Position numbers and translations under genes: made by a program. The notes below the pieces were generated by a model. That model searched no databases, had not been told where the DNA came from, and saw only the letters and a program-made list of their open reading frames with translations. A stretch of 16,793 bases of DNA from a virus (lineage: Duplodnaviria; Heunggongvirae; Uroviricota; Caudoviricetes), in IMG/VR virus record IMGVR_UViG_2571042372_000009; one strand, written 5' to 3'. Positions 6,583-13,256 of the stretch are shown in pieces. The stretch's first letter is position 1. Every line of letters begins with the position of its first letter.

Positions 6583-6636
6583 TTTTATATTGGCGAGGTG
6601 ACGGGAGTTAAGTAGAATTGCTGCGGGTGCTTGAGG

Positions 6637-6672
6637 CTATCTGCCTCAGGCATGAACACCAAAGGCAGATAG
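6637..6672 (+). promoter_or_regulatory. Perfect 10-bp inverted repeat (CTATCTGCCT ... AGGCAGATAG) in the hok/mok leader
   Basis: Arms at 6637-6646 and 6663-6672 with a 16-nt spacer. Candidate hok mRNA fold-back or antisense-target element, or a protein operator. Confidence 0.4.
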
Positions 6673-6793
6673 AGAAAAGCCCCAGTTAATATTACGCGTC
6701 CTGCAAGACGCTTAACATTAATCTGAGGCTCAATCTATGAACGGCAAATCTAGGTTAGCCTCTTACGTGCCGAAAGGCAAGGAGAAGCAGGCT

Positions 6794-6949
6794 ATGAAGC
6801 AGCAAAAGGCGATGTTAATCGCCCTGATCGTCATCTGTTTAACCGTCATAGTGACGGCACTGGTAACGAGGAAAGACCTCTGCGAGGTACGAATCCGAAC
6901 CGGCCAGACGGAGGTCGCTGTCTTCACAGTTTACGAACCTGAGGAGTAA
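6794..6949 (+). CDS. hokD: Hok/Gef family type I toxin (HokD/RelF-like), 51 aa, nested in the mok frame that starts at 6737
   Basis: MKQQKAMLIALIVICLTVIVTALVTRKDLCEVRIRTGQTEVAVFTVYEPEE matches the Hok/Gef family as recalled. The overlapping upstream in-frame extension (70-aa ORF from 6737) is mok-like. A stable 3' hairpin follows. Confidence 0.85.
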   Translation: MKQQKAMLIALIVICLTVIVTALVTRKDLCEVRIRTGQTEVAVFTVYEPEE

Positions 6950-9653: not shown

Positions 9654-9681
9654 TTGATTTTTCCCGAATCTGTGGTAAATT
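9654..9681 (+). promoter_or_regulatory. Late promoter pR'-like (TTGATT - 16 nt - TAAATT) with qut-like initial transcribed region
   Basis: The -10 and downstream TGCTCTAACGATGGG closely resemble recalled lambda pR' (TAAATT TGACTCAACGATGGG). Immediately downstream of Q. Confidence 0.65.
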
Positions 9682-9728
9682 TGCTCTAACGATGGGCGTT
9701 TTATGCCTGACGTTAGAAGATTTTTTAC

Positions 9729-9754
9729 ACCCCGCCGCCTGGCGGGTTTTTTAT
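9729..9754 (+). terminator. tR'-like intrinsic terminator
   Basis: CCCGCC-gcct-GGCGGG hairpin followed by TTTTTTAT, about 65 nt downstream of the predicted pR' start. Confidence 0.75.
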
Positions 9755-10220: not shown

Positions 10221-11270
10221 ATGCTTAATACTGTAAAAATATCCAGTTGTGAGTTAATCAACGCCGACTGCCTGGAATTTATCCGGTCGTTACCCGAAAA
10301 TTCTGTTGACCTGATAGTCACGGACCCGCCGTACTTTAAAGTGAAGCCTGAGGGCTGGGATAACCAGTGGAAGGGCGACGATGATTACCTGAAGTGGCTG
10401 GACCAGTGTCTGGCGCAGTTCTGGCGGGTGCTGAAACCTGCCGGAAGTCTTTACCTGTTCTGTGGTCATCGCCTGGCATCTGATATCGAAATCATGATGC
10501 GTGAACGCTTCAGTGTGCTGAACCATATTATCTGGGCGAAGCCGTCCGGACGCTGGAACGGATGCAACAAGGAAAGGCTGCGGGCGTATTTCCCCGCCAC
10601 AGAGCGCATTCTGTTCGCGGAACATTATCAGGGGCCGTATCGTCCGAAAGATGCCGGGTATGCGGCGAAGGGCAGTGCACTGAAACAGCATGTGATGGCC
10701 CCGCTGATTTCTTACTTTCGTGATGCGCGCGCGGCCCTGGGGATAACGGCAAAACAGATTGCAGATGCCACAGGAAAGAAAAACATGGTGTCGCACTGGT
10801 TCAGTGCCAGTCAGTGGCAGCTACCGAATGAAAGCGATTATCTGAAATTACAGGCGCTGTTTGCCCGGGTGGCAGAAGAGAAGCATCGGCGTGGTGAACT
10901 GGAAAAGCTCCACCACCAGCTGGTGGATACGTATACCTCACTGAACCGGCAGTATGCGGAGCTGCTGAGTGAATATAAACATCTGCGGCGGTATTTTGGC
11001 GTGACGGTGCAGGTGCCGTATACCGATGTGTGGACGCATAAACCGGTGCAGTTCTATCCCGGGAAACATCCGTGCGAAAAACCGGCAGAAATGCTGCAGC
11101 AGATAATCAGCGCAAGTAGCCGTCCTGGTGATCTGGTTGCGGATTTTTTCATGGGGTCGGGTTCAACGGTAAAAGCGGCGATGGCACTGGGGCGTCGTGC
11201 GATTGGTGTTGAGCTGGAGACCGGACGTTTTGAGCAGACAGTCAGGGAAGTTCAGGATTTAATCGTTTGA
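10221..11270 (+). CDS. Orphan DNA amino-methyltransferase, beta class (N6-adenine or N4-cytosine; DPPY motif), 349 aa
   Basis: Motif IV DPPY near the N-terminus (LIVTDPPYF) and motif I FxGxG near the C-terminus (DLVADFFMGSGSTVKAA). No restriction endonuclease partner in the window. No clear SD. Confidence 0.9.
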   Translation: MLNTVKISSCELINADCLEFIRSLPENSVDLIVTDPPYFKVKPEGWDNQWKGDDDYLKWLDQCLAQFWRVLKPAGSLYLFCGHRLASDIEIMMRERFSVLNHIIWAKPSGRWNGCNKERLRAYFPATERILFAEHYQGPYRPKDAGYAAKGSALKQHVMAPLISYFRDARAALGITAKQIADATGKKNMVSHWFSASQWQLPNESDYLKLQALFARVAEEKHRRGELEKLHHQLVDTYTSLNRQYAELLSEYKHLRRYFGVTVQVPYTDVWTHKPVQFYPGKHPCEKPAEMLQQIISASSRPGDLVADFFMGSGSTVKAAMALGRRAIGVELETGRFEQTVREVQDLIV

Positions 11271-11319: not shown

Positions 11320-11395
11320 GGCCCTTTAGCTCAGTGGTGAGAGCGAGCGACTCATAATCGCCAGGTCGCTGGTTCAAATCCAGCAAGGGCCACCA
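11320..11395 (+). tRNA. tRNA with CAU anticodon (Ile2/lysidine type or Met), 76 nt
   Basis: Manual fold: acceptor GGCCCTT/AAGGGCC, D-arm GCTC/GAGC, anticodon loop CTCATAA, T-loop TTCAAAT, 3' CCA encoded. Resembles ileX/ileZ-type genes as recalled. Confidence 0.85.
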
Positions 11396-11402
11396 TCACA
11401 TA

Positions 11403-11479
11403 CCGCCATTAGCTCATCAGGAAAGAGCGCCAGCCTTCGAAGCTGGTTGCGCGGAGTTCGGGTCCCCGAAGGCGGTCCA
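11403..11479 (+). tRNA. tRNA-Arg (UCG anticodon), atypical, 77 nt
   Basis: Manual fold: anticodon stem CCAGC/GCTGG with loop CTTCGAA. One acceptor-stem mismatch (A6/A67), one T-stem mismatch, and T-loop TTCGGGT with G at the usually conserved A58 position. CCA encoded. Confidence 0.6.
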
Positions 11480-11492
11480 TTATCTGTATCCT

Positions 11493-11569
11493 GCGTTGTT
11501 AGCTCAGCCGGACAGAGCAATTGCCTTCTAAGCAATCGGTCACTGGTTCGAATCCAGTACAACGCGCCA
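11493..11569 (+). tRNA. tRNA-Arg (UCU anticodon), 77 nt
   Basis: Manual fold: perfect acceptor stem GCGTTGT/ACAACGC, anticodon stem ATTGC/GCAAT with loop CTTCTAA, T-loop TTCGAAT, CCA encoded. Confidence 0.85.
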
Positions 11570-11584
11570 CACTTATTTTCCCTG

Positions 11585-11608
11585 GCTCGCTTTTGCGGGC
11601 TTTTTTTT
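11585..11608 (+). terminator. Intrinsic terminator after the tRNA cluster
   Basis: GCTCGC-tttt-GCGGGC hairpin (one G-U pair) followed by T8. Confidence 0.65.
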
Positions 11609-11614
11609 AAATGT

Positions 11615-11830
11615 CTCACAATTCAGGCGGTTGACTGTTGTCTGGTTTGCGGGGAGTTTGTTAAAAGAAACTGGCATGGTGAATCCCCCTGTGCGGAGGG
11701 GCAATCAGCGAGTAGGTATATGGGATAATCGCGGATTCAGGTGCTGGTACTGAATTCACCGGGAGGCACCCGGCACCATGCAATGGCACATAGCGCCACT
11801 CTCCAGCCCCTCTCCGGAGGGGCTTTTCTG
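11615..11830 (+). ncRNA. Candidate structured noncoding RNA module, copy A
   Basis: Begins just after a terminator with CTCACAATTCAG...TTGACT. Contains three hairpins (CCCCCT-gtgcgg-AGGGG; CCGGG-aggca-CCCGG; GCCCCTC-tccg-GAGGGGC followed by TTTTCT). The same architecture recurs in copy B while the ORFs are not conserved. Confidence 0.4.
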
Positions 11831-12082
11831 TGCCGGATACATCACAGTTTCTGGAACCTTAGGTACTACAGTATCAGTCAGGGTGCTATATTTTCAGATG
11901 TGATGAAAGCCTGTCAGCAGGCAGGGCGTATCGGAAATGACCCAGTAGAGAAAACGTTGACTCAGATACCGGTGCTGAGTTACCGGGAAACCGGCATCAC
12001 ATGACCGCTATCCTTCCAGGCCCATCCGCTCCGGTGGGCCTTTTTACTGCAGAAAACAGGTTCCCCGTTAAATGCTATGTTG

Positions 12083-12317
12083 CTCACAATTCAGTAAGTT
12101 GACAGTTGCCTGTCAGACTGGGCATTTGTTAAAAAAATTTCGCATGGTGAATCCCCCTGAGCGGAGGGGCGACTGGTGACGGTATAATCTCTGATTATCA
12201 AAACGAGAATGACGCGGGTTTAGTGGCACCGGGCTGAACTCACCGGGAGGCACCCGGCACCATGTGCATGATGATACAGATACGCGGCTTTAGCCCCTCT
12301 CCGGAGGGGTTTTCTTG
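12083..12317 (+). ncRNA. Candidate structured noncoding RNA module, copy B (divergent paralogue of copy A)
   Basis: CTCACAATTCAG...TTGACA start, the same three hairpins with conserved stems, and a terminal GCCCCTC-tccg-GAGGGG + TTTTCTT terminator. Preceded by another terminator (GGCCCA...TGGGCC + T5 at about 12019-12045). Confidence 0.4.
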
Positions 12318-12544
12318 TGGGCAAAAAAAGCCCGCGCTGGGAGACGCGGGCGGCAAGGAATAAACAATAAAACGTGAAGTAATATTTCAGCTGGCGAATA
12401 ATACCCCATAGTAATCACTCTGCGCAACTGCGCGGTCTTTTTCGAATTGCGGGCTGTCGTCTCTCTTCTGCCATTGTCCTGTAACTTCCGGACTTCAGCC
12501 CGCTCCTTATTTTACTCACAATATTATCCCGGCCGGGAGGATTC

Positions 12545-12772
12545 ATGGCATTTAAACACTATGACGTGGTCAGGGCGGTATCGCCGTCAGACCTTGCGAA
12601 ACGACTGACACAAAAACTGAAGGAGGGCTGGCAGCCGTTTGGTAGTCCGGTGGCCATAACCCCTTATACCCTGATGCAGGCGATTGCAGCAGAAGGTGAT
12701 GTGGTGGTCAGTGGTGCAACTGAGCCGGATTGGTACTACGTCATCGTACTGGCCCGGCATTCCAGGCCATAA
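12545..12772 (+). CDS. Small conserved-looking hypothetical phage protein, 75 aa
   Basis: Strong SD GGGAGG five nt upstream of the ATG. Located just upstream of the holin gene. Confidence 0.6.
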   Translation: MAFKHYDVVRAVSPSDLAKRLTQKLKEGWQPFGSPVAITPYTLMQAIAAEGDVVVSGATEPDWYYVIVLARHSRP

Positions 12773-13040
12773 AAGACAGTCTGGCAGTGGGACTAAATGC
12801 ACTGACGCTGATGGATATTACCAAAAATGTAACGTATGGCGTTGAGATAGAAAGTCTGGCGCTGGAGATAAATGCACCGGCATCATCATAAAAAGTGAGC
12901 CAGTCAAATGGAAGGTATCGTTAAACTCACCGGTAGTGTCAGTGGGTCGTCTGAGACGCTTGCATGAGTTATCAGAGCCATCAGTAGTTAACTGGTGGCT
13001 TTTTTATTGTTTTCAGCTTCCGGATAACGGGAGACGGGGT

Positions 13041-13256
13041 ATGGACCAGATGGAAAAAATCACAACAGGTGTGTCATACACCACGTCAGCGGTGGGAACG
13101 GGCTACTGGTTCCTGCAGTTGCTGGACAGGGTTTCCCCGTCTCAGTGGGCGGCAATAGGCGTGCTGGGGAGTCTGCTGTTTGGGCTGCTGACATATCTGA
13201 CTAACCTGTATTTCAAAATCAGAGAGGACCGTCGTAAGGCGGCACGGGGAGAGTAA
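13041..13256 (+). CDS. S: Holin, class II pinholin (phage 21 S-like), 71 aa with dual-start motif
   Basis: MDQMEK... gives Met1 and Met4 starts (71 and 68 aa), as recalled for S21. Two hydrophobic segments and a charged C-terminus [13 protein letters not shown]. Followed by a SAR endolysin. Confidence 0.85.

Follow-up and report, generated by a model that had tools for sequence, protein, structure and literature searches.

STnc100 is a prophage-encoded sRNA, of which 11 copies are transcribed in EDL933, with one (STnc100_4) confirmed by northern blot (PMC5331693). In Stx2 phages, one STnc100 copy is located 75 nt downstream of stx2B and overlaps the Hfq-bound EcOnc27 (i.e., sRNA103) (PMC12370729; PMC12711010); EcOnc05, EcOnc06, and EcOnc27 have been recovered by Hfq crosslinking in strain Sakai and are visible on northern blots (PMC4104026). 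In eight Sakai prophages (Sp3, 4, 5, 9, 10, 11, 15, and 17), convergent pairs of Hfq-bound sRNAs occupy the moron slot 3′ of PR′ (Tree et al. 2014, PMC4104026). What has been reported for sRNA103 is limited to an effect of its overexpression on fimZ and espA (PMC7873438). A second sRNA, PasD, carries a seed (UGUGAG) that is complementary to its RIL-seq targets and is located in the linker just before the terminator (PMC8550237, Fig. S5); that PasD and STnc100 represent one lineage with a common ancestry has already been proposed (Zhu, Shabalina and Storz, bioRxiv 10.64898/2026.05.13.724894). In our Rfam search of Sakai Sp5, an STnc100 copy on the plus strand (L002:6423–6628) adjoins AsxR on the minus strand (6630–6682); STnc100 copies were also found 3′ of stx2B and at other positions. 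To our knowledge, no member of STnc100 proper has a proven direct target.

The locus described here is part of a 16,793-nt stretch of DNA (IMG/VR record IMGVR_UViG_2571042372_000009; hereafter, the window) that represents a lambdoid prophage of extraintestinal E. coli and is 100% identical to UTI89. The gene order, based on the UTI89 RefSeq annotation and Pfam, is RusA, Q, a 65-aa ORF, a methyltransferase, tRNAs, a gene-free segment of ~0.95 kb, DUF1737, holin, lysozyme, and spanin; together with a lambda-like PR′ and a tR′-like terminator (Table 1), this order places the flagged stretch inside the Q-dependent late transcription unit, in the slot that holds stxAB in Stx phages. Between 9600 and 13100, 16 terminator-like sites were identified, as compared to 3.5 ± 1.9 in shuffled sequences (an approximately four- to fivefold excess), and six plus-strand intrinsic terminators are located between the tRNAs and the holin gene. 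We consider it likely (probability of about 0.8) that the gene-free segment, at the moron slot of a lambdoid late operon, contains three autonomous sRNA genes of an STnc100/PasD superfamily in tandem, as well as a convergent EcOnc08-type gene. RefSeq marks none of these four sRNA genes in UTI89-like extraintestinal E. coli. The original prediction had described ~0.9 kb without a credible ORF and with two modules; the lack of a credible ORF and both modules were borne out, while the spacer between the modules contains a third, diverged copy (11898–12048), and the end of the region (12323–12540) contains the convergent minus-strand gene.

Table 1. Features of the prophage late region, with positions in the window; RNA ends, promoter elements, and seeds are predicted.
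Feature	Position	Strand	Basis or sequence
Antiterminator Q, PF03589	8827–9648		Pfam
Lambda-like late promoter PR′, directly after Q	~9654–9682		TTGATT...TAAATT, then TGCTCTAACGATGGG
Strong terminator after PR′ (lambda-like tR′)	9731–9746 + T run		terminator scan
DNA methyltransferase	10221–11270		RefSeq UTI89/Pfam
tRNA-Ile2, tRNA-Arg, tRNA-Arg	11320–11569		RefSeq UTI89
Intrinsic terminator closing the tRNA cluster, module 1 directly after	11584–11601 (element 11584..11609)	+	terminator scan
Module 1 upstream region	11615..11673	+	sequence; equivalent layout upstream of homologues
Conserved box, module 1	11615–11626	+	CTCACAATTCAG
TTGACT, module 1 upstream region	11631–11636	+	
-35-like hexamer, module 1	11638–11643	+	TTGTCT
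Extended -10, module 1	11659–11667	+	TGtTAAAAG
Module 1 RNA, EcOnc05/06-type STnc100, ~159 nt	11674..11832	+	Rfam, model R1, minimum-energy fold, probe
P1 of module 1	11674–11681 paired with 11774–11781	+	
Variable linker (putative seed), module 1	11782–11804	+	AAUGGCACAUAGCGCCACUCUCC
Terminator, module 1	11805–11824 + U tract	+	
Extended -10, middle module (TATATT at 11887–11892)	11884..11897	+	TGcTATATT; sequence
Middle module, diverged unnamed paralogue, ~151 nt	11898..12048	+	Rfam, R1, fold
Linker, middle module	12003–12017	+	GACCGCUAUCCUUCC
Terminator, middle module	12018–12041	+	
Module 3 upstream region	12083..12141	+	sequence
Conserved box, module 3	12083–12094	+	CTCACAATTCAG
TTGACA, module 3 upstream region	12099–12104	+	
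-35-like hexamer, module 3	12106–12111	+	TTGCCT
Extended -10, module 3	12127–12135	+	TGtTAAAAA
Module 3 RNA, EcOnc27/sRNA103-type STnc100, ~178 nt	12142..12319	+	Rfam, R1, fold
Closing base of P1, module 3	12265	+	
Linker, module 3	12266–12291	+	GCAUGAUGAUACAGAUACGCGGCUUU
Terminator, module 3	12292–12311	+	
Convergent sRNA gene, EcOnc08/21/42 type	12323..12551	-	promoter/terminator scan, EPEC identity, Sakai probe
Promoter-like site of the minus-strand gene	12551 to 12523	-	ATGCCA-17-GATAAT; scan
Ends of the minus-strand RNA	5′ ~12516–12504, 3′ ~12323	-	
Strong terminator of the minus-strand gene	12351 to 12330	-	scan
Terminator-like hairpin inside the minus-strand RNA	12420..12442	+	CTGCGCAACTGCGCGG, then TCTTTTT; scan; conserved at the Sakai Sp5 AsxR locus
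Truncated DUF1737 gene	starts 12545		RefSeq UTI89/Pfam

Modules 1 and 3 are members of the described prophage family STnc100 (EcOnc05/06/27, sRNA103) and, as such, are already known. In an Rfam search (cmscan), module 1 presented a match to RF02076 at 11645–11835 (136.3 bits, E = 1.9e-30) and module 3 at 12113–12322 (161 bits, E = 8.7e-37), both above the STnc100 gathering score of 47 bits; the search that the original prediction had proposed as a check thus recovered the two paralogous modules where they had been placed, and the identity that it had left open can be given as STnc100, with PasD as a relative. The northern probe for EcOnc05 from O157 Sakai matches module 1 exactly (35/35 bases, 11703–11737), and the EcOnc06 probe matches it at 34 of 35 bases. 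Pairwise alignment of modules 1 and 3 (81% mean column identity; four indels of 15, 1, 3, and 3 nt) confirmed the shared blocks that had been noted between the two copies (i.e., the conserved upstream box, GTTGAC, the hairpins, and identical terminators), and each of the two modules is, as had been described, preceded as well as closed by a terminator (Table 1). The likeness to STnc100 comprises full-length matches, a shared fold, and a position in the prophage late region; the locus differs in that it lies in an stx-less prophage of extraintestinal E. coli and in that three copies are found in tandem.

For a closer comparison, a covariance model (R1) was built from module 1, module 3, and Sakai EcOnc27 and trimmed to the predicted RNA; R1 contains 34 base pairs distributed over P1, P2, P4, P5, and the terminator, and was searched against the window, three reference loci, and ~96 IMG/VR contigs fetched with a 15-base pattern. 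This search yielded 118 matches (65 distinct) at E up to 1e-5; module 1 and module 3 scored 161.7 and 181.9 bits, respectively. A third full-length match was found in the window at 11898–12048 (36 bits, E = 7.6e-7), where Rfam, at a permissive threshold, also presented an STnc100 match (11874–12047, 30.1 bits, E = 2.6e-4) that is below the gathering score. This middle copy forms 32 of the 34 R1 pairs despite largely different stem sequences, and its minimum-energy structure, when folded alone, is exactly the architecture of the family (z = -2.79); the array thus consists of three copies rather than two. P1, which is GCAUGGUG/CACCAUGC in modules 1 and 3, is AUGUGAUG/CAUCACAU in the middle copy, and corresponding replacements are found in P2 (CCCCU/AGGGG versus GCCUG/CAGGC), P4 (GGAUUCAG/CUGAAUUC versus UGACUCAG/CUGAGUUA), and the terminator stem (AGCCCCUC/GAGGGGCU versus GGCCCAUC/GGUGGGCC); P5 of the middle copy is CCGG/CCGG. 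The middle copy shares the fold of STnc100; by its Rfam score on its own, it would not be assigned to the family. No prior name for this copy was found, and no mention of it was found in the UTI89 Hfq co-immunoprecipitation paper (PMC4546395).

Modules 1, middle, and 3, each folded alone, present the same architecture, in which the long-range helix P1 encloses P2, a variable P3, P4, and P5 and is followed by a linker and the terminator; single-sequence folding z-scores were modest (-1.3 to -2.8). The count of three hairpins per module in the original prediction has to be replaced accordingly by one long-range helix around four hairpins, a single-stranded linker, and a terminator. Among the 65 distinct homologues, 98.5% of alignment cells pair, as compared to 92.4% in shuffles, in an alignment fitted to the R1 model, and 25 of the 34 pairs are changed on both sides (versus 6.4 in shuffles and 4–10 when partners were slid by 1–3 columns); none of 500 shuffles reached any of the observed pairing measures. 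Covarying pairs include all eight in P4, all eight in the terminator, and five of eight in P1. P5 presents no covariation and is almost invariant in sequence. The fetch pattern is located within P1/P2, and the conservation of their 5′ strands is therefore partly by construction. Stems are thus maintained through compensatory changes, as expected from the earlier reading of structured RNAs. We also considered a riboswitch-like alternative pairing, as CCCCU/AGGGG is common to P2 and the terminator in modules 1 and 3; this candidate was rejected because neither the middle copy nor PasD has this likeness, and EcOnc27 lacks part of it.

The published 5′ ends of PasD provide a reference for the 5′ ends of these RNAs. 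PasD1 and PasD2 were mapped by RNA-seq and northern blot to 1060260–1060432 and 741157–741328, respectively (Pearl Mizrahi et al., PMC8550237, Table S6); their starts (1060260 and 741157) fall exactly on R1 position 1, the G of GCAUGGUG and first base of P1. In all 46 distinct upstream regions, a -10-like hexamer that begins with TA ends at -8 to -6 relative to R1 position 1; a TG extension is found in 30 of these 46, and a TTGnnn -35-like hexamer is located 17–19 nt upstream in nearly all. Based on this layout, we take TTG(T/C)CT with TAAAA(A/G), separated by an 18-nt spacer, as the putative shared promoter of modules 1 and 3, and transcription would, by analogy with PasD, start at 11674 (module 1), ~11898 (middle module), and 12142 (module 3). 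The first ~28 positions of the Rfam STnc100 model likewise appear to represent promoter DNA, judged from the PasD 5′ end. In the modules as delimited by the original prediction, the first ~60 nt (from the conserved box to TTGAC) are most likely upstream or promoter DNA, outside the short RNA form. TTGAC(A/T) itself was rejected as a -35 element; it has only weak -10 partners (GAGTTT and GCATTT) at 17 nt, and the single TTGACT in PasD aligns with the downstream TTG(T/C)CT. Northern blots in Sakai showed sizes of ~222 nt for EcOnc05 (Sp4), ~177 nt for EcOnc06 (Sp17), and ~235/247 nt for EcOnc27 (PMC4104026); because these bands exceed the predicted short form, longer isoforms starting ~60 nt upstream, at the conserved box, may also be made.

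PasD1 and PasD2 (E2348/69; EcOnc13 in Sakai) have in common with the modules described here the promoter layout, the 5′ end, P1, P2, and P4, as well as a position downstream of Q and a single-stranded linker that precedes the terminator; PasD differs in that it lacks P5, has a longer linker with UGUGAG, and ends in a different terminator. UGUGAG, by which, together with a PasD-type terminator, membership in PasD was judged, is absent from all three linkers of the window (Table 1). Variability within the family is highest in the linker and in P3, with majority frequencies of 0.52 and 0.63, respectively, as compared to 0.94–0.98 for P5 and the P1 3′ strand; the 118 matches include 31 distinct linkers, which cluster at 75% identity into 21 types. 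Modules 1, middle, and 3 carry mutually unrelated linkers, and two of these are C/U-rich (…CACUCUCC and …CUAUCCUUCC), which would suit pairing with purine-rich ribosome-binding regions. The module 1 P3 type occurs with seven linker types, the module 3 linker type occurs with five P3 types, and all four combinations of P3 types 1 and 8 with linker types 1 and 2 exist, although clustering at 75% identity is coarse and the homologue sample is biased. These combinations suggest crossing-over in the invariant P5/P1 block. As a tentative extension, which we regard as possible but rather doubtful, genes of the STnc100 family may represent recombining cassettes in which a fixed promoter, junction, and terminator frame a hypervariable P3 and linker (the seed), with the middle copy forming an unrecognised third clade next to STnc100 and PasD. 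If this were true, tandem stacking at the moron site and crossing over in the ~24-nt invariant block (P5 and the P1 3′ strand) would reshuffle seeds, and lambdoid phages would retarget host regulation by such reshuffling.

The minus-strand gene, which is convergent with module 3, presents 95% identity over 260 nt to the E2348C_1409-1408 intergenic sRNA locus of EPEC, which is likewise convergent with an STnc100 copy. The EPEC RNA has an estimated length of 182 nt (PMC8550237, Table S6), represents a RIL-seq hub with partners that include the cfa and dppA leaders, and was equated by its authors with Sakai EcOnc08/21/42 (PMC8550237); the Sakai EcOnc08/21/42 probe maps to 12397–12427 in the window. 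This gene completes the published "convergent sRNA dyad" of the moron site. As in the dyads of Tree et al. (PMC4104026), a long plus-strand sRNA directly adjoins one on the minus strand, and both are located between the cargo and a conserved DUF1737-type ORF; however, the minus-strand partner is here of the longer EcOnc08/21/42 type, and the plus-strand side is triplicated. An AsxR/AgvB anti-sRNA, defined by a length of 51–60 nt, a conserved 3′ region of ~42 nt, and a match to RF02703 or RF02702, was considered and rejected, since Rfam presented no such match at E up to 1 in 11560–13060, while AsxR at Sakai Sp5, used as a control, scored 88 bits; the body of the minus-strand RNA differs from AsxR, and its upstream and promoter region is homologous to that of AsxR. 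A weak minus-strand match to OmrA-B (12323–12411, 25 bits) is below threshold and reflects the terminator-containing EcOnc08-type RNA rather than a homologue of OmrA/B.

By analogy with the described relatives, we infer that the RNAs of this locus are expressed, bind Hfq, and act in trans, with the seed located in the linker. Each plus-strand module would have a sigma-70-type promoter, with a -35 and an extended -10, from which an RNA of ~150–180 nt would be made; its first eight bases would form P1 and close a four-hairpin junction, to be followed by a single-stranded linker of 15–26 nt, wholly different between modules, and by a Rho-independent terminator with a U tail. Transcription would be separate for each unit in the lysogen and would stop at that unit's own terminator; the resulting RNAs would contact Hfq via the terminator hairpin and U tail, and the hypervariable linker would serve as the seed for pairing in trans. 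The three modules would thereby have three different target sets, with the conserved junction as a stabilising or protein-binding scaffold. Upon induction, Q-modified RNA polymerase from PR′ would read through all terminators; the stacked terminators would probably also, as a compatible lesser role, prevent stray transcripts from running into the lysis genes before Q acts. The family, the structure, and the position between PR′/Q and the lysis genes agree with what would be expected of regulatory sRNAs encoded by a phage at the Stx cargo (moron) position, and the earlier reading of paralogous, structured, non-coding phage sRNAs is supported.

The same terminators may also be read differently, in that the modules would be cis-acting parts of the late operon (i.e., a terminator stack or insulator, or a Q-dependent modifier or stabiliser of the transcript) and the released RNAs would be by-products. 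Both the terminator excess, including the six plus-strand terminators between the tRNAs and holin, and the location of the array inside the PR′-to-lysis transcription unit are consistent with such a role; yet a terminator alone needs neither a conserved junction of 110 nt, nor a promoter of its own, nor covariation in P1 and P4. Uninduced lysogens contain homologues as abundant RNAs bound to Hfq, PasD engages in many trans contacts mediated by Hfq, and copies are also found 3′ of stx2B and elsewhere; we regard a purely cis-acting role as unlikely. It appears quite improbable, too, that the conserved junction (P1, P2, and P5) serves as a platform for a phage or host protein other than Hfq, which the RNAs would titrate or guide instead of pairing through a seed. 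Such a platform would fit the sequence conservation of P5 and the P1 3′ strand, the lack of covariation in P5, and the GGAGG-like motifs that can be read at the stem-loop boundaries of P2 and P5; against it, the middle copy and PasD change or lose the P2 and P5 sequence while the fold is kept, recombination between copies could instead maintain the invariant block, and we know of no junction-binding protein of this kind.

A decayed protein-coding gene, or a small peptide translated from the conserved ATG (MVNPP...), would be compatible with a minus-strand pseudogene (partial "hypothetical protein") that RefSeq annotates opposite module 1, with a 132-aa ORF annotated by RefSeq antisense to PasD1 in E2348/69, and with ribosome footprints reported on some STnc100 copies of EDL933 (PMC5331693). 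The ORF that starts at this ATG, however, varies from 8 to >57 codons across homologues and is unrelated past approximately nine residues, in agreement with the argument against coding that the original prediction had drawn from the differing frames; homologue lengths (134–188 nt) differ by non-multiples of three, the ATG is located inside P1 and is not preceded by a Shine-Dalgarno sequence, and substitutions are compensatory in helices rather than codon-patterned. Pfam presented no match above cut-off for the local ORFs on either strand, including the RefSeq minus-strand "hypothetical protein" fragments. Without a conserved frame or a Pfam match, the locus is non-coding as judged by these measures, and a degraded gene, which had been named as the outcome that would overturn the earlier reading, is very hard to credit. 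Three autonomous sRNA genes in tandem with a convergent fourth continue to be our preferred reading.

The finding represents no new kind of system. What it adds is minor: a middle paralogue that is diverged and has no name, three tandem copies in extraintestinal E. coli, and signs that seeds may be shuffled. For annotation, it shows that ~0.9 kb of "empty" prophage DNA holds four sRNA genes, of which the middle copy also escapes the Rfam threshold. These sRNA families have so far been studied in enterohaemorrhagic and enteropathogenic strains; the presence of the same cassettes, with different putative seeds, in uropathogenic and meningitis-associated lineages suggests that phage riboregulation extends beyond the Stx context. 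The 991-bp segment 11570–12560 presented 100% identity to UTI89, S88, IHE3034, ATCC 11775, and many other extraintestinal strains, and was present at ≥80% coverage in 353 of 5426 complete E. coli genomes. The middle copy was found in 673 of the 5426 genomes, as two variants (100% and ~91% identity), with no annotation on it in any listed record holding the whole copy; the matches listed come from hospital wastewater and from isolates of human, dog, and poultry origin, with no O157:H7 label among them, which may explain why no name was found for this copy. Minus-strand-RNA-like DNA was found in 1067 of the 5426 genomes, with O157:H7 strains among the matches listed. A scan of genome contigs with the pattern GCATGGTGAATCCNCC yielded, among the matches listed, only chance ones in unrelated phyla. 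Module 3 shares ~87% identity with the copies located 3′ of stx2 in Stx2 phages, and module-3-like DNA was found in 353 phage records, mostly of Stx1- or Stx2-converting phages, being unannotated in nearly all records listed. Arrays of two to four copies are present in several viral contigs; the three-copy arrangement (module 1 type, middle type, module 3 type) recurs in at least nine IMG/VR contigs, and one contig (L129) contains four copies.

The box CTCACAATTCAG and the GTTGAC that follows it after 4 nt form a conserved element, located roughly at -59 to -38 relative to the predicted start (the first base of helix P1). Most homologues of the STnc100 clade also carry the box upstream. PasD (a related EPEC sRNA) and the middle copy lack it. 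The box would be part of the longer EcOnc05 and EcOnc27 isoforms (222-247 nt) seen on northern blots. CUCACA is precisely the motif targeted by UGUGAG, the PasD seed.

Features of the window and of loci L001 and L129
Feature	Location	Strand	Basis or remark
hok/sok-type toxin-antitoxin locus	window 6625-6799		Rfam sok match, 113 bits
Lambda-like late promoter PR' and terminator	window 9654-9752		directly after Q
tRNA	window 11320-11395		ARAGORN: Met(CAT)
Box CTCACAATTCAG	window 11615-11626 and 12083-12094		upstream of modules 1 and 3
Convergent sRNA gene, EcOnc08/21/42 type	window 12323-12551	minus	95% identity to EPEC E2348C_1409-1408 intergenic RIL-seq sRNA
DUF1737 gene, truncated	window 12545-12772		RefSeq: pseudogene missing C-terminus
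STnc100-like match	L001:65-209 (UTI89 1392942-1393086)	minus	model R1, full-length, 36.3 bits, E 2e-8
Four tandem STnc100-family copies	L129:2268-3350		IMG/VR contig 2861053794_000003

A full-length match to R1, our STnc100 covariance model, was also found in L001, approximately 220-370 nt before the window start, where it occupies the interval separating the terminator of DicF from the start codon of dicB; P1 (GAUGCGGUG/CACCGCAUC) and P5 (CCUGG/CCAGG) are visible in this match, which has no terminator of its own. The DicF-dicB spacer looks like an STnc100-like scaffold serving as an mRNA leader. The largest array encountered was the four-copy array on contig L129, in which the promoters and linkers of the four copies are strongly diverged.

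The convergent sRNA gene on the minus strand is not annotated in RefSeq, and its promoter-like -35 overlaps the start codon of the DUF1737 gene on the opposite strand. The DUF1737 domain is retained in the 75-aa ORF of the truncated gene; a DUF1737 gene usually follows the sRNA dyad, and the window carries this truncated form.

The late promoter comprises TTGATT...TAAATT, then TGCTCTAACGATGGG. Next comes a strong terminator (9731-9746 and the T run after it), an arrangement that predicts a short leader transcript, approximately 65 nt long and analogous to lambda 6S RNA or StxS. RefSeq labels the UTI89 gene identical to the tRNA in the window as tRNA-Ile (lysidine-modified Ile2 type), and likewise its Sakai counterpart, ileZ2; Stx phages also carry an Ile2-type tRNA-Ile. 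At the UTI89 position equivalent to the hok/sok-type locus, RefSeq annotates hokD.
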